A DNA stretch of 64,000 nt, taken from assembly GCA_963752155.1 (NCBI GenBank), contig CAVVXH010000010.1, positions 1-64,000 on the forward strand. Direction: 5' to 3'. Both the position numbers and the translations under genes were made by a program. This document shows, piece by piece, positions 52,253 through 62,924 of this stretch. Numbering within the stretch: position 1 is the first letter of the stretch; the number at the start of each line of letters is the position of its first letter. Source of the DNA: an uncultured Parachlamydiaceae bacterium. Lineage in GTDB: Bacteria > Chlamydiota > Chlamydiia > Chlamydiales > Parachlamydiaceae. The notes beneath the pieces are model-generated. The model searched no databases. It saw only the letters and a list, made by a program, of their open reading frames with translations, and had not been told where the DNA came from.

Positions 52253-53317
52253 ATGATGAACCCCGGAGAAATTAATAATCAGCAAACTCAGCAAACTTAC
52301 AATCAATATTATAAATTTGCTCATCGCACAGAAGTTTTGCTTAATTTTACAGCAAAATATCCAACCATCAGTTCGCAATTTAACGATTTGAAAAAGCAAA
52401 AGATCGACTTTGAAGAATCACCATTTTTTGTTCACGCGATTTTTTCGACGATTGTTAGATATCGTAAAACAGATAATTTTAAATATTTTATTAAAAATGT
52501 TAACAAGGATAATTTCGCTCGGTGCGCAAACGGTTTAACTCTTCCCAATTTTGATGATTCTAAAAAATGCATTACTTCAAAGCCATTGCATTCTCTTCTT
52601 TTTCAGGCTATCTGTCCAAATTTTACATCCACTTGCGATGAAAGGCTTAAGCTTGAGCCAAAATTAATAAATATTTTATTGGCTCATGATGATATTGATG
52701 TCAATTCACCTGTCATTGATTATTCAGGATGGGATGATTATGGCCTATTTATAATGCATGGAGGGACTCCTTTAGATATAGTGATAGAAAAAATCCGAAA
52801 TATTCCTTTAGCGCAAGCTCTATTGCTAAACGGAGCCAGATTAAAACTGCCTCTATCAGATAGGGGGCTAATATTTTATCAATCTGTTATTAATCCTTTA
52901 TATGCACCTTCTAAATGGTTAATTTTATCTAAAATATTCCCCAAGGAAATTCTTTCGAAGATTGTATATTACCAAATCAAAAATGCTGAACAAAAAGTTC
53001 TACCTGAAGATGGTAGCTTCCAAGGTCCCCCTCCACCCTATTTTGAAGCTTTACATGAATTGAGGATCAAATACTTATTTAATCAGAGTTATAGAAAATA
53101 TGTTAATAAAACAAAGGAACTAATGAATCTGAACAAGTTTTTTCTTCTATCTGCATCGGAACCTACACTAATAAGCGAGCTACGTTTTATGCTAAAAAAA
53201 GCTGAAATTCTTGGTATTGACATCGGAGTCTTGGATGAAGAATCAAAAAATGCTTTGGACATCGCACAAAAATGTAAGAACGAAGAAGCAATCATCCTTC
53301 TTAAATCGGTGGGGTGA
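52253..53317 (+). CDS. Ankyrin-like repeat protein, paralog 1
   Basis: DIDVN...GGTPLDIV...LLLNGA, NALDIA; close paralog of 54141..55259. Confidence 0.8.
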   Translation: MMNPGEINNQQTQQTYNQYYKFAHRTEVLLNFTAKYPTISSQFNDLKKQKIDFEESPFFVHAIFSTIVRYRKTDNFKYFIKNVNKDNFARCANGLTLPNFDDSKKCITSKPLHSLLFQAICPNFTSTCDERLKLEPKLINILLAHDDIDVNSPVIDYSGWDDYGLFIMHGGTPLDIVIEKIRNIPLAQALLLNGARLKLPLSDRGLIFYQSVINPLYAPSKWLILSKIFPKEILSKIVYYQIKNAEQKVLPEDGSFQGPPPPYFEALHELRIKYLFNQSYRKYVNKTKELMNLNKFFLLSASEPTLISELRFMLKKAEILGIDIGVLDEESKNALDIAQKCKNEEAIILLKSVG

Positions 53318-53709: not shown

Positions 53710-53985
53710 TCGCGTAAGATCTCTTTGTGCTCTTTGCGCCTTCGTGCCTCCTAAATAACAAGTTCGCGCCTTGCCATTGGTGCCTGACCTGATATTCTGA
53801 CATTTGCCCTCCTGGGAGGTTATGTCATCATTGTAGGCAAATGTCAGAATATCAGGTCAGGCACCAATGGCAAGGCGCTTTAAAAATTTGTTATTTCCTA
53901 ATAGGGGGCGCCGCAGGCAACTGTCTCGCTTTGCGTTTAATTTTTTCCTATACTTGATATCTTAATATCGCAGCATCTTTCTCAC
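53710..53985. repeat. Partial element A carrying the same B cassette (B at 53766-53878)
   Basis: Near-identical to 7525-7755 but ending in the opposite A terminus (ATCGCAGCATCTTTCTC). Confidence 0.9.
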
Positions 53986-54140: not shown

Positions 54141-55259
54141 ATGATGAACATCGAAGAAAATTATGCCAGGCAAACTTGCAGTCAATATTATAAATTTGCT
54201 CGTCTCACAAACGCTTGCCTTAATTTCACAGCACAATATCCAACCATCATTTCGCAATTTAACCAATTGAAAAAGGAAAAGAACGATTTTGAAGAATCTC
54301 CATTTTTTGTTCACGCGATTTTTTCGACAATTGTTGATAATCGTAAAACAGATAGTTTTAAATATTTTATTAAAAATATTAACAAAGATACTTTCGCTCG
54401 TTGTGCAAACGGTTTAACTCTTCCAGATTTTGATGATTCTAAAAAATGCGTTACTTCAAAGCCTTTGCATTCTCTTCTTTTTCATGCTATCTGTCCACAT
54501 TTTAAAACCGTTTGCCGTAAAATGGTTAACCCTGAGCCAAAATTAATAAATATTTTATTGGCTCATGATGATATTGATGTCAATTCACCTGTCATTGATC
54601 AATCAGGATGGCATGACTATGACTTATTTATAATGGATGGAGGGACTCCTTTAGATATAGTTATAGAGAAAATCCGAAATATTCCCTTAGCGCAAGCTCT
54701 ATTGCTAAACGGAGCCAGATTAAAACTGCCTCTATCAGATAGGGGGCTAATATTTTATCAATCTGTCATTACTCCCTTATATGAACCTTCAAAATGGTTA
54801 ATTTTATCTAAGTTTGACCCCCAATGTAAATTCCAAATATTCCCCGAGGAAGTTCTTTCGAAGATTGTATATTACCAAATCAAAAATGCTGAACAAAAAG
54901 TTCTACCTGAGGATGATCACTTCCCAATTGCCCCACCACCCTATTTTGAAGCTTTACATAAGTTGAGAAGCTTTAACTTATTCAATCAGAATGAAAGAAA
55001 ATATGTTTACAAAAGAAATGAATTTATGAATCTGAACAAGTTTTTCCTTCTATCTGCATCGGAACCTACACTAATAAGAGAGCTACAGTTTATGCTAAAA
55101 AATGCTAAAATTCTTGATATTGACATCGGAGTCTTGGATGAAGAATCAAAAAATGCTTTGGATATCGCACAAAAATGTAAGAACGAAGAAGCAATCATAC
55201 TTCTAGAAAGCGCAAATCACAAACCTAAGCATTCAAATAAGCCTTGTGTGATACAATAA
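54141..55259 (+). CDS. Ankyrin-like repeat protein, paralog 2, with C-terminal CaaX motif
   Basis: Same motifs as paralog 1; ends KPKHSNKPCVIQ. Confidence 0.8.
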   Translation: MMNIEENYARQTCSQYYKFARLTNACLNFTAQYPTIISQFNQLKKEKNDFEESPFFVHAIFSTIVDNRKTDSFKYFIKNINKDTFARCANGLTLPDFDDSKKCVTSKPLHSLLFHAICPHFKTVCRKMVNPEPKLINILLAHDDIDVNSPVIDQSGWHDYDLFIMDGGTPLDIVIEKIRNIPLAQALLLNGARLKLPLSDRGLIFYQSVITPLYEPSKWLILSKFDPQCKFQIFPEEVLSKIVYYQIKNAEQKVLPEDDHFPIAPPPYFEALHKLRSFNLFNQNERKYVYKRNEFMNLNKFFLLSASEPTLIRELQFMLKNAKILDIDIGVLDEESKNALDIAQKCKNEEAIILLESANHKPKHSNKPCVIQ

Positions 55260-55285: not shown

Positions 55286-55314
55286 TTGCGTATAAATCTT
55301 TTATATGTTACAGT
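55286..55314 (+). promoter_or_regulatory. Predicted sigma70-type promoter of the aro operon
   Basis: TTGCGT-17 nt-TACAGT with TG extended -10 element. Confidence 0.6.
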
Positions 55315-55343
55315 TAGGAAAAGAGCACAAAGGACACGTTAAG

Positions 55344-55403
55344 ATGAGCCAACAGCTGTACTTCTACTTCTATTACTTACCCACTTGGCGGGAGGCTGAC
55401 TGA
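55344..55403 (+). CDS. Leader peptide 1 (Tyr/Phe-rich) MSQQLYFYFYYLPTWREAD
   Basis: AAAGGA upstream; six consecutive Tyr/Phe codons at 55359-55376; followed by a terminator. Confidence 0.88.
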   Translation: MSQQLYFYFYYLPTWREAD

Positions 55404-55430
55404 TGCTGTAAAAAGCATTCGTGTCTCACA

Positions 55431-55457
55431 AATCCCGCCACAAGCGGGTTTTTTTTT
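55431..55457 (+). terminator. Attenuator terminator 1
   Basis: CCCGC-CACAA-GCGGG followed by 9 T; its 5' arm TCCCGCCA can instead pair with TGGCGGGA (55386-55393). Confidence 0.85.
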
Positions 55458-55492
55458 GCCCTAATATAATTTAATTTTTTTAAGGAATCCAA

Positions 55493-55588
55493 ATGTCTCT
55501 TATAAACTCTATCAAAACTCTCCCAAGTACAAATTGCTATTTCTATTTCTTTTTTTATTTTACTCCACCCATAGGCGGGAGCCCTTGA
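55493..55588 (+). CDS. Leader peptide 2 (Phe/Tyr-rich) MSLINSIKTLPSTNCYFYFFFYFTPPIGGSP
   Basis: TAAGGA SD; eight consecutive Phe/Tyr codons at 55538-55561. Confidence 0.88.
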   Translation: MSLINSIKTLPSTNCYFYFFFYFTPPIGGSP

Positions 55589-55622
55589 TCCCTTATTAGC
55601 TGATGCTAAATAGGTTTGAATC

Positions 55623-55653
55623 AGGCCCCGCCAAAAGGTGGGGCTTTTTTTTT
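55623..55653 (+). terminator. Attenuator terminator 2
   Basis: GCCCCGCC-AAAA-GGTGGGGC followed by 9 T; its 5' arm can instead pair with GGCGGG (55574-55579). Confidence 0.9.
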
Positions 55654-55693
55654 GTCCAAAAATCAAAATGTGATGTTATATAAAAGGAAAAAT

Positions 55694-56485
55694 ATGGATA
55701 TTTTAAGTTCAAATCCTGCGAATTTAATGATTGCAGGACCCTGTGCTTTGGAATCTCGAGATCAGCTTCGAGAGACTGTGGCCACCCTAAAAAAATTGGG
55801 AATAAATATGATTCGAGCTTCTTTATGGAAGCCCCGAACACTACCAGGCTGGGAAGGCCTTGGATGGATGGGCCTCCCCATTCTCTTAGAAGAAACAGTT
55901 CCGCATGGTCTAATCCCTGCCACTGAAATCATCACTGCAGAACATGCATTAATGGTTGTGCATGCCATGGAACAGAATGGCGAAAATGCTAAAATCATCG
56001 TTTGGTTAGGATCTCGCAATCAAAATCATATTGAACAAAAGAAAATTTCTAAAATTTTGGCCACAGGTCCCGGAGGGATTATCCTCATGTTCAAAAATCA
56101 AATGTGGGAAGATGAGCGTCATTGGTTGGGTATCTATGAACATATCATTTCTGAAGGATTCCCTCGCGAACGGCTGATGATTTGTCACCGAGGATTTTCC
56201 CCAGGAAAAATGAATAATCCAAAAGGACTGCGGAATCTACCCGATTTCGAAATGGCGATGAGAGTCAAAGAAAAAACGGGTTTACCAATGTTGCTGGATC
56301 CTTCTCACATTGGTGGGTCAACAGAAAATGTTATGGAAATTTGTTCTGCTGCTATGGCCTATGACTTTGATGGACATCTTGTAGAAATGCATTGTAATCC
56401 AGATAAAGCAAAGACAGATGCAAAACAACAGCTTTCCCCGGCTCAATTCCAAAGTTTATTGAAATGTGTTCGAAATCCTTCTTGA
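55694..56485 (+). CDS. aroF: DAHP synthase (type I-beta-like, no regulatory domain)
   Basis: IAGPCALES, WKPRT, HRGFS, DPSH, EMH...TDAKQQ; AAAAGGA SD before ATG 55694. Confidence 0.85.
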   Translation: MDILSSNPANLMIAGPCALESRDQLRETVATLKKLGINMIRASLWKPRTLPGWEGLGWMGLPILLEETVPHGLIPATEIITAEHALMVVHAMEQNGENAKIIVWLGSRNQNHIEQKKISKILATGPGGIILMFKNQMWEDERHWLGIYEHIISEGFPRERLMICHRGFSPGKMNNPKGLRNLPDFEMAMRVKEKTGLPMLLDPSHIGGSTENVMEICSAAMAYDFDGHLVEMHCNPDKAKTDAKQQLSPAQFQSLLKCVRNPS

Positions 56486-56493
56486 GGTGGGGC

Positions 56494-57326
56494 ATGGCAA
56501 CAATTACTTATCAAGGTGTTCTTGGAGCTTTTAGCTACATCACAGCCGTAAAGCTATTCGGAGAGGATCAAAATTATAAGGCTGCTTCTACTTTTAAGGA
56601 AGCATTTGATTATGTAAATGATGGAGAAGCGGATTATGCAGTTTTGCCCATTGAAAATAGCCTGATAGGTTCAATTTTCGAGAATTATGACCTTTTGAAT
56701 GCTTATGAGATGCTTATTATTGGAGAGCATTATATGCGCATTGAACATTGCCTTTTGGTATTGCCTTGCTTATCCGTTCTTAAGGACGTCAAAAAAGTAC
56801 TCTCGCATCCTAAAGCTCTGCAACAATGTACTGACTTTTTCCGCAATCATCCATGGATAGAGGCTGTCGTTCACATTGATACTGCAGCTGCTGCCAAAGA
56901 AGTGGCCGATCGAAAAGATCCGGCTTATGCAGCCATTGCAAGTGCTTTTGCAGGAGAATTCTATGGTTTAAAGATGATTGAGAGGGGCATTGAAGATGAT
57001 ATACAAAATTATACTCGTTTTATTATTCTAGCGAAAAAAGAAATGATCCTAGAAACGGCAGTTGAAGACGATAAATGTTCCTTAGTGATGCGTTTGAGAC
57101 ATCAACCTGGAACTCTTGCGAATGCTCTCGAATTATTTGGAAAATATGGATTTAATTTGACCAAGATCGAATCGCGACCTATTCGAGGAATCCTTTTGAG
57201 TATTTATTTTATGTGGACTTTAGTTTTGAACCTAGAGATGGGCATGTTATTCAGGCCTTAGAAAATCTAAAAGATGAAACAGAGTCTTTAAAGATTTTAG
57301 GATTTTATAAAAAAGGGACGTTATGA
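56494..57326 (+). CDS. pheA: Prephenate dehydratase (apparent frameshift near 57190)
   Basis: YQGVLGAFS, PIENSLIGS, SHPKALQQC, NYTRF, ACT domain LTKIESRP; the shifted frame continues PFEYLFYVDF to a stop overlapping the next ATG. Confidence 0.9.
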
Positions 57327-58381
57327 AAATGTTGCAAAAACTTCGAGATCGAATTGATTGGCTTGATGAACATATCGCTTTTTTGATGGATGCGAGAATG
57401 AAAACGGTCGATCAAGTCGGTCGATTAAAAAGTACTCTACATCAAGATGTCACAGACTTATCCCGAGAAGACAATGTTTTACAGCATGTGCAAGATGCCG
57501 TTCAACATCCTATTCTTAAAACTAACATTGTCAACATCTACAAAGAGATTATGTTGGAAGCGAGAGTGGCACAACAGTTTTTTAGACATACTTCTCAGCC
57601 CTTTCGAAGAATTGGTATTATTGGGCTTGGAATGATGGGTGCATCTATCTCTAAAGCACTTAAAACAAAGGATCCATTAATTGAGTTGTGTACGATCATG
57701 CATCCTGGCAATGATACTTCACAGGCTTATGCGGGGGGGTGGATAGATCGTATGTTCTCCACATTAGCTGAACTTATTGAAAATATAGATCTTATCATTT
57801 TGGCATCTCCAATTTCGACGATTATTGCTTATGCCAATGAAATAGCACAGCATGCCTCACAAAACAAAAAACTCATCGTTCTGGATATCGCAAGCGTCAA
57901 GCTAGACATTGTTAAAGCTTTTGAGGCTCTGACCAGTGAACAGATAGAGTATGTGGGATCTCATCCTATGGCCGGAAATGAAACCAGTGGTTTTGCAGGG
58001 AGTCAACCCACTCTATTTGTTAATAGGCCTTGGGTCATCGTTCCTCATTCCAAAAATACTGCAGAAACACTCGGTTCCATCGAAGAGTTAATTCAATTTT
58101 TTGGTGCAAAACTTACTTCTTTAGATGCTGAAATTCATGATCAAAGAGTTTCACTCATTTCACATCTGCCTGCATTTATTTCAAAATCATATTTAGATTT
58201 TGTAAATTCTACGGATCCTCAGAGCTCACTTATTGCAGGGCCAGGTTTCGAATCATTTACTCGACTTGCTAGCCAAAACGAGCAGATGCAAGTTGAAATA
58301 GAAAAATATAACAAGAACTTTATTCAAGCTTATTTAAAGCAATGGCTAGCAGTTCTGGAAAATAGAGAGGAACATTCATGA
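57323..58381 (+). CDS. tyrA: Chorismate mutase/prephenate dehydrogenase fusion
   Basis: AroQ-like LRDRIDWLD...RE N-terminus; GLGMMG, DIASVK, HPMAG, HD...ISHLP, TRLA. Confidence 0.9.
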   Translation: MKMLQKLRDRIDWLDEHIAFLMDARMKTVDQVGRLKSTLHQDVTDLSREDNVLQHVQDAVQHPILKTNIVNIYKEIMLEARVAQQFFRHTSQPFRRIGIIGLGMMGASISKALKTKDPLIELCTIMHPGNDTSQAYAGGWIDRMFSTLAELIENIDLIILASPISTIIAYANEIAQHASQNKKLIVLDIASVKLDIVKAFEALTSEQIEYVGSHPMAGNETSGFAGSQPTLFVNRPWVIVPHSKNTAETLGSIEELIQFFGAKLTSLDAEIHDQRVSLISHLPAFISKSYLDFVNSTDPQSSLIAGPGFESFTRLASQNEQMQVEIEKYNKNFIQAYLKQWLAVLENREEHS

Positions 58382-59544
58382 AACAATTATCTGCTTCAGC
58401 AACTGTTGCAATCAATGATTTAGCTCTAGAAAAAAAGAGCAAAGGAGAGAGGGTCTATAATTTCGCAGCTGGGGATCCAGTCCTTGTTAATCACCCTTCC
58501 ATTGGTGCAAGGGGCTGTTAAGCAAATTGAGAAGGGATTATCTCCGTACCCTCCTGTAGAGGGGCTTCCTCAATTGCGTGCATTGGCTGTAGATTGGGTG
58601 AACACCACATGCCATACGAGTTTTCACAAAGAGAATGTATTGGTCACATGTGGGGGCAAATTTGCTCTGTTTGCGATATTAGAATCCCTCCTCGAGCAAA
58701 ATCAAACGGTTTTAATCATTGCTCCTTATTGGGTTTCCTATCCTTCACTTGTTAAGATGGCTGGAGGAATCCCTAAAGTGATTTCAACTCATGCTGCAAA
58801 AAAGTGGAAAATCACACCGCAAGACCTTATAGAGCATCATTCGGTAGAGACTAAAGCGTTGATTTTTAATAGTGCTTGCAATCCAACTGGAACGGTCTAC
58901 ACGAAAGAAGAGGTTGCGGCCATTTTACGTACAGCAAGTGAATTGGGTCTGATGGTTATATCTGACGAGGTCTACAGTGGTCTTGTGTTTGAAGAGGAAT
59001 TTGTTTCTTGCGGTTCATTTCCTGAATATCGTGAGAACGTTATGATAGTCCAAAGTTGCTCAAAGAATTTTGCTATGGCGGGATGGAGAGTCGGATTTGC
59101 TTTTGGGCCTGAATCGATCATTGAACTTTTGGCCCGAGTTCAAAGTCAAACAACTACAAGTACTCCTTTGGCGAGTCAGTGGGCTGCAATAAGTGCTTTG
59201 GAGAACGCAGGGGTTGTGAATTCATATGTTAAACAGGCAATGAGAGCAAGAAGAGACATTTTTGTCTCCACTTATAACTCTCTTTTTTCTACTCCTATTG
59301 AAACGCCAAAGTCGGCTCTTTATGCCTTTTTATCCATGAGTTCACTTGGATTACCGCAAGAGGTCTCCTCCGGTTCATTTTGTAAGGAACTTATTTCAAA
59401 AGATAATTTAGCTGTTGCCCTGGAACTGCTTTTGGAGATGAAGAGTATGTGCGCTTTGCCTATTCAGAAACTGAAGACGAAATTCAAGAAGGATTACATG
59501 TGTTGCAATCTGCAATTGAACCAATTAGGAGAGAAAAATCATGA
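58378..59544 (+). CDS. PLP-dependent class I/II aminotransferase (AspC-like; apparent frameshifts near 58503 and 59418)
   Basis: FAAGDP, NPTG, SDEVY, SKNFAMAGWRVG, shifted-frame PGTAFG...VRFAY; ATGA overlaps at both ends. Confidence 0.88.
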
Positions 59545-60840
59545 GTCACTATCTTGTTAAAAAATCAACTACAAAGCGGGGAAATTGTCGTCCCTCCTTC
59601 AAAGTCTCATACTTTACGTGCCATTCTTTTTGGCGCATTAGGTCACGGAGAAACAAAAGTTCGCAATTACCTTGACTCGACATACTCAGCAATGATTGAA
59701 GCCTGTAGACTCCTTGGAGCTACTTTAGATGTCACTTCTACATCCATTACAATTCAAGGGACGAATGGAAAAATTGATTTTGGGAATAAAGATGTGATCC
59801 ATGCTGGAAATTCAGGAATAGTTCTCCGGTTCTGTGCGGCCATTGGAGCCCTTTCTTCGAATCCAATTGTGATCACAGGGGATCATTCCATCCGCCATCA
59901 AAGACCTATGAAGCCACTTCTTGATGGGCTTTCACAGCTAGGTGTCACTTCTTATTCCATGCGAGGAGATGGGTATGCGCCCATTATTACTTTCGGACCT
60001 ATTCGTTCTGGAAAAGTAATTATTTCCGGAGAGGATTCTCAGCCGGTTTCTGACTCCTCGATCGCTGCCGCTTTTGCCGAAGGGCCTATTGATTTAGAAG
60101 TGCGTAATGCCGGGGAAAAACCTTGGGTGGCTCTGACACTAGATTGGTTTGATCGTTTAGGGATCGCTTATGAACATCGAAATTTTGAGTCCTATCGTCT
60201 TTTTGGAAATAATCGCTATGAAGGATTTGATTATACAGTGCCAGGAGATTTAAGTTCAGCAGCATTTCCCATTACTGCAGCGTTGATTACAGGTTCAGAG
60301 CTAATTGTCAATAATATTGACATGCAAGATTCCCAGGGAGATAAAGAGCTCATTTTGACGCTCCAAAAAATGGGAGCTAGGATTGAAATTGATGAACATC
60401 TCAAAAAGTTAGTTGTAAAAAAGGGAAAACAACTTTCAGGGATATCTGTCGACATTAATAATTATGTGGATGCCATTACAATATTGGCAGTCGTCGCTTG
60501 CTATGCTGAAGGGGAGACGAGAATTGAAAATGCTGCAGTTGCTCGACAAAAGGAATGCAATCGCATTCAGAGCATCGCAACAGAGTTGCGTAAAATGGGA
60601 GCTGACATTCAAGAAACTGAGAATGGTTTGCGTATTAGAGGATCCAAACTTAAAGGAGCAGATGTAGAATCGTATAATGATCATCGAATGGTGATGTCGT
60701 TGTGTGTTGCAGGCTTAGGTGCTGAGGGTGAAACTAAAGTGGGCCCTGTGGAGTGTGTTTCAAAAACATTCCCTACGTTTAAAAAGGATTTTACACTTCT
60801 TGGAGCTATCCTAAGAGATGACTTGGAGACCTCTTCATGA
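59541..60840 (+). CDS. aroA: EPSP synthase (apparent frameshift near 59565)
   Basis: PPSKSHTLRA, GNSG, RPM, PGDLSSA, RQKECNRI, DHRMVM, KTFP. Confidence 0.95.
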
Positions 60841-61367
60841 ACATTATTTTATGTGGACTCCCCATGAGTGGTAAGACGACGATTGGAAAAATGGTTGCTC
60901 AACAGCTAGATTATCATTTCATCGATACAGATCGCCTCATTGAAAAAGCTTATGTTGAGGAAAAACATCAAGCAAAATCTTGCCGTGAAATTTATCGAGA
61001 GCTAGGAGAAGTCAAATTTCGAGAATTCGAAAAACAACAAATTGCCACTTTGAAAGAATTAAATAGAACGGTTCTTGCACTAGGTGGGGGAACTTTGGAA
61101 GATGTTGAAAATGTGTTCAAATTAAAGGAAGTGGGTTTGATGATTTATTTGAAAGCTCCTATCGATGTTCTTTGGACCAGAATGAGTCTTCAAAACATTC
61201 CAGCCTATTTGGATCCAAAAGATCCTGAAAAAGCATTTTATGAATTAGCTAAAAAGCGTTTACCTTTATATGAAAATGCTGCACAGCTTGTTGTCGAGAC
61301 AACACAGTTAAGTGAGCAAGAGATCGTTAATAATATAATGAATAGGAAGTTAACAGATGGCGAGTAA
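60837..61367 (+). CDS. aroK: Shikimate kinase
   Basis: GLPMSGKTT, DTD, GE..FR..E, LGGG, RLPLY. Confidence 0.95.
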   Translation: MNIILCGLPMSGKTTIGKMVAQQLDYHFIDTDRLIEKAYVEEKHQAKSCREIYRELGEVKFREFEKQQIATLKELNRTVLALGGGTLEDVENVFKLKEVGLMIYLKAPIDVLWTRMSLQNIPAYLDPKDPEKAFYELAKKRLPLYENAAQLVVETTQLSEQEIVNNIMNRKLTDGE

Positions 61368-62449
61368 TCATTTTGGAAATATTTTTAAAATTACGACATG
61401 GGGAGAGTCCCATGGAAAGGCTATAGGTGTCGTGATCGATGGGTGTCCGGCAGGACTCGAGCTTGATGTGAGCGAAATTAATTCAGCCCTAGCCTTGCGT
61501 GCACCTGGAAGAAATCCTTATACTTCCCCAAGAACTGAAACAGATCAAGCAGAAATTTTTTCCGGGGTGTTTGAAGGAAAAACAACAGGAGCGCCAATAA
61601 GTATCATTATTCCAAATAGGGATGCAGATTCAACGAAGTATGAACCGATTAAAGATCTCCTTAGGCCGGGACATGCGAATTTTACCTATTTGGAAAAATA
61701 TGGGATTTTTGATTATCGGGGAGGGGGCCGGGCATCTGCACGTGAAACTGCCAGTCGCGTTGCAGCTGGAGCTGTAGCCAAGAAGCTACTGAAATACAAT
61801 GAAATTCAGGTTATTGCCTATCATTAAACAGATTGGGGAAGTAGAAGCTATTCCTAACCGAGAAGATTTTGAACAGTTGCATGAAGCTATCTATGAAAGC
61901 CCTTTATTTTGCCCTGATGCGAATGCTACACAAAAGATGATTCATCTTATTGAAAAAGTCAAGGATGATGGGGATTCACTTGGAGGTGTCGTTGAATTTT
62001 ATGCCTTTGGAGTTCCTGTTGGGTTAGGAGATCCAGTCTATGAAAAATTGGAAGCTAATTTAGCTCAAGCTCTGATGACGTTGCCTGCTACAAAAGGATT
62101 TGAAATTGGTTCAGGTTTTAGTTCAGTAAGGATGCTTGCATCAGAACACAATGATCTTTTTAGCAATGAAAAGGATAAAATAGAGACTAAAACAAATTAT
62201 GCAGGTGGAACATTGGGAGGGATTTCCAGTGGAATGCCGATCGTTGGTAGAGTTGCTTTTAAACCGACCTCGAGCATTAAAAAGCCTCAGGCGACTTTGA
62301 CAAGATCAGGGGAACGTTCATCTTTTAAATTGCCTGAAGGTTCGCGTCATGATCCATGTGTTGCGATTCGTGCGGTGCCGGTTGTTGAGGCTATGGTTGC
62401 GCTGGTATTGGTAGATGCCATTCTCATGAATAGGAGCGTTAGGATTTAG
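61357..62449 (+). CDS. aroC: Chorismate synthase (apparent frameshift near 61823)
   Basis: WGESHG, RPGHA, GGGRASARET, DSLGG, GGISSG, FKPTSSI, RHDPC split over two ORFs. Confidence 0.95.
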
Positions 62450-62549: not shown

Positions 62550-62924
62550 CCGCGGCGTTCCCTATCGGGAAATAACAAATTTTTAAAGCGCCTTGCCATT
62601 GGTGCCTGACCTGATATTCTGACATTTGCCTAAAATGTAATGTAACCTCCAAGGAGGGCAAATGTCAGAATGTCAGGTCTGGAACCAAGGCCAGAACGTT
62701 ACCTCTCAGAATTAAGTATCTTGTTATTAATTGAAAACGACGCTTTTGCTTCTTTCAGTTTCGTAAAACTTGGGGGTAACGTTCCAGCCTTGGTTCCAGA
62801 CCTGACATTCTGACATTTGCCCTCCTGGGAGGTTACGTTATCATTTTAGGCAAATGTCAGAATATCAGGTCAGGCACCAATGGCAAGGCGCTATTTTTAA
62901 AAAAGCAAACTTGTTATTTAGGAG
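62550..62924. repeat. Double palindrome-B cassette (B at 62588-62700 and 62778-62891)
   Basis: Two B copies between CCCTATCGGGAAATAACAA and TTGTTATTTAGGAG ends. Confidence 0.9.

Follow-up and report, generated by a model that had tools for sequence, protein, structure and literature searches.

The window analyzed in the current work (the whole stretch of DNA, 64,000 nt in length) carries, ahead of a gene for a DAHP synthase, two consecutive units, each of which consists of a short Tyr- and Phe-rich leader ORF followed by a predicted intrinsic terminator. The features of this region, and of the operon that follows it, are listed here with their coordinates and strand:

55286..55314 (+): candidate sigma-70-type promoter, placed by eye and a weak match (TTGCGT at 55286-55291, 17 nt, extended -10 element TGnTACAGT)
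55330..55334 (+): Shine-Dalgarno-like AAGGA of leader 1, from sequence
55344..55403 (+): leader ORF 1, 19 aa, with control codons YFYFYY at 55359-55376 (4 Tyr and 2 Phe); homologous ORFs occur in relatives
55386..55393 (+): antiterminator strand 2 of unit 1 (TGGCGGGA), beginning 9 nt past the last control codon
55402..55420 (+): inner hairpin of unit 1, between its strands 2 and 3, from folding
55433..55457 (+): strand 3 and intrinsic terminator 1 (CCCGC/GCGGG at 55434-55448 and T9 at 55449-55457; about -8.4 kcal/mol)
55482..55486 (+): Shine-Dalgarno-like AAGGA of leader 2, from sequence
55493..55588 (+): leader ORF 2, 31 aa, with control codons YFYFFFYF at 55538-55561 (5 Phe and 3 Tyr)
55574..55589 (+): antiterminator strand 2 of unit 2, core GGCGGG at 55574-55579, beginning 12 nt past the last control codon
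55596..55609 (+): inner hairpin of unit 2 (TTAGC/GCTAA), from folding
55623..55653 (+): strand 3 and intrinsic terminator 2 (GCCCCGCC/GGTGGGGC at 55625-55644 and T9 at 55645-55653; about -18.9 kcal/mol)
55694..56485 (+): aroF, class I-beta DAHP synthase, 263 aa (PF00793 over residues 10-258; catalytic barrel only)
56464..57317 (+): pheA, prephenate dehydratase plus ACT, with an apparent frameshift near 57189
57323..58381 (+): chorismate mutase-prephenate dehydrogenase (tyrA-like), from a domain match
58378..59560 (+): class I/II aminotransferase, with an apparent frameshift near 58503
59554..62449 (+): aroA, aroK and aroC, the latter split over two frames with a break near 61810

The preliminary description of this DNA had placed two complete units of the same layout in front of the DAHP synthase gene of an aromatic amino acid operon, and both parts of this claim held: the ORFs, pairings, terminators and T9 tracts were all retrieved at the coordinates listed above, and downstream of them aroF is followed by pheA, chorismate mutase-tyrA, the aminotransferase, aroA, aroK and aroC. 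In unit 1, TGGCGGGA (55386-55393) is complementary to TCCCGCCA (55433-55440), and in unit 2, GGCGGG (55574-55579) is complementary to CCCGCC (55627-55632). Both terminators were detected by a terminator scan, terminator 1 of the window being weaker than that of most relatives. An in-frame ATG at 55305 was considered as start of leader 1 and rejected, being situated within the candidate promoter.

The product of aroF aligns with solved DAHP synthases from residue 92-143 of their longer chains (333-385 aa) onward, and the window enzyme is thus without the N-terminal regulatory domain. The apparent frameshifts in pheA, the aminotransferase gene and aroC may represent sequencing indels or decay. 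Of the remaining genes, aroB was located at C10:68187 and aroE on a different contig, and a single aroQ query against the genome returned no match; TrpR was not found in G000 (80% complete); Rho is present. Two repeated structures flank the operon, namely a nested palindromic element of approximately 310 bp at 62585-62900 (partial copy at 53766-53878) with 51-nt perfect outer arms, which is present in at least 40 near-full genome copies of 89-97% identity and has the look of a MITE- or REP-type repeat, and a pair of tandemly duplicated ORFs (52253-53317 and 54141-55259; 88-89% nucleotide identity in 300-nt blocks) without a Pfam match.

Within the genome that was searched (3.13 Mb, 80% complete), both the leaders and their terminators are singular. 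Among 56,645 ATG-started ORFs of 8-45 aa, six consecutive Phe/Tyr codons were encountered at 11 starts (corresponding to 7 distinct stops), and only the two leaders of the window have a terminator behind them. Of 106 terminator-like sites in the genome, only the two of the window are associated with a Phe/Tyr/Trp-rich uORF, and these also represent the only terminator pair located 60-300 nt apart; no other convincing amino acid attenuator was found among these 106 sites.

Relatives were collected as aroF loci from genomes and metagenomes (the latter being the best 80 of 212 confirmed), from which loci of less than 44% identity were dropped and identical ones merged, resulting in 104 loci including the window. 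A unit was defined as an ORF of 6-60 aa with at least four Phe/Tyr/Trp residues in eight codons and an intrinsic terminator behind it. With the metagenome part being the best 80 of 212, 85 of the 104 non-redundant loci carry units (120 units), and pairs of Tyr/Phe-rich uORFs, which the preliminary description had suggested searching for in related genomes, are indeed present at 35 of the 104 (14 in a chlamydial branch and 21 in a Patescibacteria-type branch). Of the 22 loci of the chlamydial branch, 14 have two units and 5 have a single one, the other 3 being truncated; the corresponding numbers for the 63 loci of the Patescibacteria-type branch are 21, 33 and 9, one unit being scored at 38 loci with enough upstream DNA; the automatic scoring overlooked the second unit of L072. 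The 19 loci without units include 8 that are truncated, and side clades within the chlamydial part of the tree account for 10 of the remaining 11. Within the supported 14-row clade of the window, 11 loci are tandem. Since the arrangement is kept in independent assemblies, an assembly artefact, which the preliminary description had considered unlikely, can be ruled out.

The nearest aroF relatives of the window are records labelled Chlamydiae, and one locus of the chlamydial branch is labelled Oligoflexia. "Patescibacteria-type" is a tree label, its branch holding Roizmanbacteria and Patescibacteria records; two of its loci (L034 and L037) are labelled Gammaproteobacteria, yet their genomes fall within the Roizmanbacteria order sample, and these labels are probably wrong. 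This type of aroF is patchy: at E<=1e-90 it was present in 10 of the 400 genomes sampled from the phylum and, in the Patescibacteria samples, in 1 of 401 genomes phylum-wide and 17 of 201 at order level; with the same query it was not found in two genomes of the window's own genus. On a quick tree (72 loci used for state changes, rooted on a long outgroup, L039 being excluded for its frameshifted aroF) the one-unit or two-unit state changed at least 14 times, and lone units inside tandem clades are mostly unit-1-like (L022, L050, L038, L063, L064, L068 and L096). Just upstream of aroF, loci L050 and L027 carry one leader peptide and then two back-to-back terminators, of which the bare second one may be what is left after deletion of a second unit. 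In another chlamydial DAHP synthase clade, L009 has a Phe/Tyr-rich uORF approximately 460-355 nt upstream of the match, for which no terminator was detected. When trp operons were inspected by the same criteria, no Trp leader was found in 7 chlamydial regions, and of the 8 regions in total one (L165 of Patescibacteria, at approximately 2550-2700) contains a single Trp-codon leader and terminator ahead of its trp operon.

The promoter which the preliminary description had predicted ahead of unit 1 is sustained in its position but is weak. It lies 29 nt before the leader ATG (with a start site expected near 55321), in agreement with the strong promoters of relatives, which are mostly located 18-36 nt before the ATG, but its match to the consensus is poor; it is absent from the first scan of the window, and in a separate promoter scoring the best site at this place reached 8 against a threshold of 9. 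Across the relatives, most first units (28 of 32) and most single units (40 of 44) have a promoter score of at least 9 (searched within 75 nt). A separate promoter between the two units, named in the preliminary description as a finding that would contradict it, was looked for in the same manner, and a promoter-like site precedes 0 of 35 second units; considering this difference between first and second units, the two units of a tandem are therefore taken to act in series. A score-9 site was observed 105 nt upstream of unit 2 in the long spacer of L035. Long spacers of this kind (133-144 nt in L035, L073, L109 and L143) are structured-looking and mutually related, and are possibly inserted repeat elements. 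A Shine-Dalgarno-like word is present upstream of the second unit in 10 of 14 chlamydial tandems. In Patescibacteria-type loci (e.g. L033, L062 and L065) the ATG of the first leader is mostly situated 7-13 nt after the -10 box, making it near-leaderless, and a Shine-Dalgarno-like word is absent from all 21 first units of the tandems; the second ORF starts 9-26 nt past terminator 1, mostly without such a word.

The position of the antiterminator strand shortly after the control codons, described beforehand as the classical geometry, proved to be a general property of the family. Strand 2 begins 9 nt (unit 1) and 12 nt (unit 2) past the last control codon in the window, and 8-13 nt past it in 108 of 120 units (search window -3 to +36), this spacing being constant whether the stop codon follows the run by 6 nt, and thus precedes strand 2, or by up to approximately 40 nt. 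The conserved quantity, as far as sequence can tell, is the distance that would be left free by a stalled ribosome. The duplex of strands 2 and 3 (2:3) has a mean energy of -14.7 kcal/mol versus -7.7 kcal/mol with shuffled strand 2, reaching p<=0.05 in 101 of 120 units. Its core consists of GCGG with CCGC in 84 units, GGAGG with CCTCC in 22, a mixed pair in 1 and others in 13. Considering that covarying stems had been proposed as a check, it is relevant that the core of strand 2 covaries with the terminator arm: at least 6 core changes occurred on the tree, and the independent pairs, being only 3, are all concordant (p 0.25).

Folding of each unit was then modelled with the ribosome at different positions, where, in line with the size of a ribosome footprint, 6-12 nt beyond the A site were assumed to be covered. 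A hairpin of -2 kcal/mol or better is present at the place of the inner hairpin in 36 of 36 chlamydial-branch units. With the RNA extending to the terminator loop, strand 3 stays sequestered both when the ribosome stands on a Phe codon and when it stands on a Tyr codon in 32 of the 36 units of the chlamydial branch and in 83 of the 84 of the Patescibacteria-type branch; with the ribosome at the stop codon, strand 3 becomes free in 35-36 of the former and 81-84 of the latter. With the complete terminator at equilibrium, the two window units switch from approximately 0 to 0.99 as the ribosome passes the last part of the control run, but P(terminator) falls below 0.5 for a Phe codon as well as for a Tyr codon in just 18-19 of 36 chlamydial-branch units, is never below 0.5 in 14-15 of 36, and has a median of 0.87-0.98 over all units when the ribosome is at the last control codon. 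The comparison of folding with and without a ribosome, as proposed at the outset, thus gave a divided outcome: the cotranscriptional model switches (both codons being effective in 115 of 120 units), and the equilibrium model performs less well. Because equilibrium folding is less favourable, the switch would have to rely on folding order, with 2:3 forming first. The free RNA of each window unit adopts the antiterminator fold (z -1.4 for unit 1 and -2.1 for unit 2), and as both units antiterminate in folding without a ribosome, the protective 1:2 hairpin is predicted to be weak in the window; its local candidates there have -5.9 and -7.4 kcal/mol, and the outcome for the family varies with the folding model. 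Taking geometry, pairing and folding together, each unit is very probably a classical Phe/Tyr attenuator and the pair, standing in series, is real and conserved.

The codon content of the leaders follows that of the operon. At pheA-less chlamydial-branch loci (aroF then tyrA; n=4, at just 3 positions in the tree) the control codons comprise 22 for Tyr and 3 for Phe (Tyr fraction 0.75-1.0, 5 units), versus 93 Tyr and 120 Phe at pheA-bearing loci of that branch (n=17; Tyr fraction 0-0.67, 30 units), with L055 being excluded as too short. The loci concerned (L030, L054, L028 and L027) have Tyr-only or Tyr-rich leaders ahead of aroF-tyrA operons, and the tandem of L030, where the operon is without pheA, consists of two Tyr-only units. 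In the three genomes with such loci that were searchable, namely G300 (91% complete), G421 and G1016, no prephenate dehydratase (PDT) was found, and PDT was found in two positive controls. L022 has a Phe-only leader although its operon is full. Synonymous variation occurs at conserved Phe/Tyr codons, the control codons being mostly UUU and UAU (326 TTT and 193 TAT of 723). A Trp codon is present in 21 of 42 single units of the Patescibacteria-type branch, suggesting, from codon content, a three-amino-acid sensor. No clean link was obtained between leader Trp codons and trp genes when 30 (incomplete) genomes were searched with PF00290: G417 has trpA and no Trp codon, and G951 has a Trp codon with trpA not found.

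On this basis, we favour (with a probability of roughly 0.7) a reading in which two ribosome-stalling attenuators read the same signal, being a shortage of Phe OR Tyr, and in which their read-through is multiplied. A single promoter would generate a leader RNA with two complete attenuators in series, and in each unit a ribosome would translate the leader ORF behind the RNA polymerase. When charged tRNA-Phe and tRNA-Tyr are ample, the ribosome would pass the aromatic run and cover GGCGGG, upon which the terminator would form and transcription would stop; when either charged tRNA is short, it would stall on the run, allowing the free GGCGGG to pair with CCCGCC before the 3' arm of the terminator is made, with read-through as the result. 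At unit 2 a fresh ribosome would take a second decision on the same signal, and the output of the operon would therefore approximate the product of two read-through probabilities, the basal leak being reduced and the switch made steeper and more delayed. Most likely, the same amino acid shortage is read twice in order to keep the operon tightly off until needed, and such doubling may matter because the DAHP synthase is without a feedback domain. Sequence and comparison show the anatomy and geometry of the units, their covariation, the single promoter and the way codon content follows the operon, whereas we infer that the leaders are translated, that transcription terminates and responds to starvation, that the two decisions are independent, and why the unit was doubled. 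In a toy race model, the rates of which come from the legend to Figure 5 in PMC1183508, each window unit responds to either amino acid, and the tandem product is approximately ten-fold or more below single units under mild starvation and near full under strong starvation, which illustrates how tandem output might behave. The sharpened control of the pathway that had been proposed for the locus remains the best inference from two complete attenuators in series under one promoter.

The preliminary description had assigned the two stages different tasks, the first being Tyr-biased, the second Phe-biased and their output AND-like. Such a two-input gate, in which unit 1 would sense mainly Tyr and unit 2 mainly Phe (the reverse in Patescibacteria) with only the last one or two codons being effective, agrees with the 4Y/2F and 5F/3Y runs of the window and with the last control codon, which is position-specific in both branches (in chlamydial tandems it is Tyr in 10 of 14 first units and Phe in 13 of 14 second units, reversed in Patescibacteria-type tandems). 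In the equilibrium model chlamydial units antiterminate best within a narrow window that precedes the end of the run by one or two codons, and in the toy model at 5 codons/s the output was 0.094 under joint starvation versus 0.005 and 0.003 under starvation for one amino acid alone, i.e. a soft AND that single units display likewise. However, the bias of the window is not conserved in relatives: 68 of 70 tandem units contain both Phe and Tyr codons, the two exceptions being the Tyr-only pair of L030, which itself speaks against such a gate, and the Tyr fraction of unit 1 versus unit 2 is 0.50 versus 0.47 in the 14 chlamydial tandems (6 higher, 4 lower, 4 tied) and 0.44 versus 0.50 in the 21 Patescibacteria-type tandems (0 higher, 12 lower, 9 tied). 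Moreover, the last three codons mostly contain both Phe and Tyr, the cotranscriptional model finds both effective in almost every unit (115 of 120), and under a strict AND the operon would stay shut when just one product is missing. The gate is thus unlikely, and the claim of differently biased, AND-like stages is not supported.

Nevertheless, unit 2 has more control codons in 11 of 14 chlamydial and 15 of 21 Patescibacteria-type tandems and the stronger terminator in 12 of 14 and 14 of 21, respectively (-8.4 versus -18.9 kcal/mol in the window), and given these differences and that in the last codon the units are not equivalent. This asymmetry, together with the positional identity that is kept in the chlamydial branch (similarity of 0.71 between first units and 0.70 between second units, 0.64 across), would suit two thresholds for the same signal, in which a leaky unit 1 serves as a pre-filter or synchronising pause and unit 2 sets the threshold, and the asymmetry would also fit a gate that is two-input in part; we consider the two-threshold reading rather improbable, as single units in tandem clades are mostly unit-1-like, so that unit 1 apparently works alone (although these kin are not independent). 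The at least 14 changes between one and two units among 72 loci, and the back-to-back terminators behind one peptide at L050 and L027, could be taken as signs of neutral redundancy, in which the second attenuator would add nothing to regulation and, though tolerated, would often be lost. This is very unlikely considering that both units keep ORF, run, geometry, antiterminator and terminator at approximately 63-67% identity between unit 1 and unit 2 in two distant branches, and that a second intact terminator would not be neutral unless regulated. That the uORFs are by-products of U-rich sequence, with the hairpins being constitutive terminators or small-RNA ends, is hardly credible: UUU/UAU codons do dominate and Rfam matches are sub-threshold only, but the synonymous variation at conserved codons, the fixed spacing, the covariation and the Tyr enrichment where pheA is absent all argue against it. 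A wider reading, which is possible if doubtful, would assume a mobile aromatic operon with a modular, stackable attenuator, copy number (one or two) and codons of which are retuned to operon content, Tyr-only leader peptides included, where the two stacked units would have diverged into a true two-stage processor (with different thresholds or last-codon specificities) and their retention would point to transcription-translation coupling tight enough for classical attenuation in environmental chlamydiae and Patescibacteria, in the latter despite a first ORF that is near-leaderless and a second one mostly lacking a Shine-Dalgarno word.

If the favoured reading is correct, amino acid leader-peptide attenuators would join the regulators that are stacked in series, so far mainly riboswitches and T-boxes, and Chlamydiota would gain what looks like a well-formed classical attenuator. 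By implication, aromatic amino acid synthesis would be regulated in these organisms, which are usually taken as scavengers. Because classical attenuation needs a ribosome close behind the polymerase, the element would also allow coupling to be probed from sequence in two groups that are uncultured; the text of section 9 of PMC13323073, as far as accessible, contains no statement on predicted coupling in Chlamydiota. The natural one-unit, two-unit, Tyr-only and Phe-only variants represent a ready series for testing attenuation theory (of the kind in the accessible part of PMC1183508), and the element is a potential compact Phe/Tyr biosensor part.

Among known systems, the closest likeness in form is to pheL and trpL. 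Unit 2 matched the Rfam family Phe_leader (RF01859) with 24.2 bits against a gathering cut-off of 55, and Trp_leader (RF00513) was matched with 23.7 against 41, both being sub-threshold; judging by sequence, the units would share the testable defining features of pheL/trpL attenuators except a clear 1:2 protector, and fall outside every Rfam leader family. As in E. coli pheL-pheA (RF01859; accessible part of PMC3082878), a short ORF with an aromatic run and then Pro is combined with competing 2:3 and 3:4 pairings and an intrinsic terminator. E. coli pheL is single, contains Phe only and precedes pheA, whereas the present leaders are mixed Phe/Tyr, form two units and precede a whole aro-phe-tyr operon in other phyla. 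The aroR-aroF system of Corynebacterium glutamicum (Neshat et al. 2014, via the accessible part of PMC11802643) likewise has a leader with Phe and Tyr codons before a DAHP synthase operon; it differs in that a single leader carries just three control codons, with a tandem going unmentioned in that part, and its Phe-Tyr-Phe leader is described there as responding to Phe and not to Tyr, which counts against the Phe OR Tyr reading. In Acholeplasma, uORFC-13-1 (accessible part of PMC8632094) is a predicted uORF with an intrinsic terminator ahead of aroF, but it is single and Phe-specific, and its prediction is confined there to Acholeplasma and unassigned sequences. For C. trachomatis, the accessible part of PMC7755916 judges the sole leader candidate poor and holds no validated TrpL. 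In the open literature (i.e. without subscription papers and supplements, which may hold predictions) no report was found of tandem amino acid leader-peptide attenuators with intrinsic terminators, nor of any amino acid leader-peptide attenuator in Chlamydiota or Patescibacteria, in agreement with the preliminary description, which knew of no tandem of this kind in chlamydiae.

Its statement that leader-peptide attenuators normally act singly was too strong, since two stacked cases exist, both different in kind. Salmonella mgtCBR (mgtM/mgtP), called a singular example by its authors, has two independent uORF attenuators in one leader, but these respond additively to two signals (ATP and proline), operate without intrinsic terminators and do not control a biosynthetic operon (accessible part of PMC3641672). 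The double lock of mefA-msrD comprises two leader-peptide attenuators that respond to the same signal and suppress basal expression, but through antibiotic-induced stalling on leaders of different operon genes, with no amino acid sensing (accessible part of bioRxiv 10.1101/2021.11.29.470318). The same-signal stacking of riboswitches and T-boxes, cited beforehand as well known, is indeed established (accessible parts of PMC9481103 and PMC12452182), and pseudo-cooperative tandem riboswitches and tandem T-boxes resemble the present tandem in taking same-signal decisions in series with a steeper response, as is described for same-ligand tandem riboswitches (PMC9481103). In those systems the RNA itself binds the ligand or the tRNA, without ribosome or leader peptide (PMC9481103, PMC12452182), whereas in the tandem described here each decision would be taken by a ribosome translating a leader peptide.
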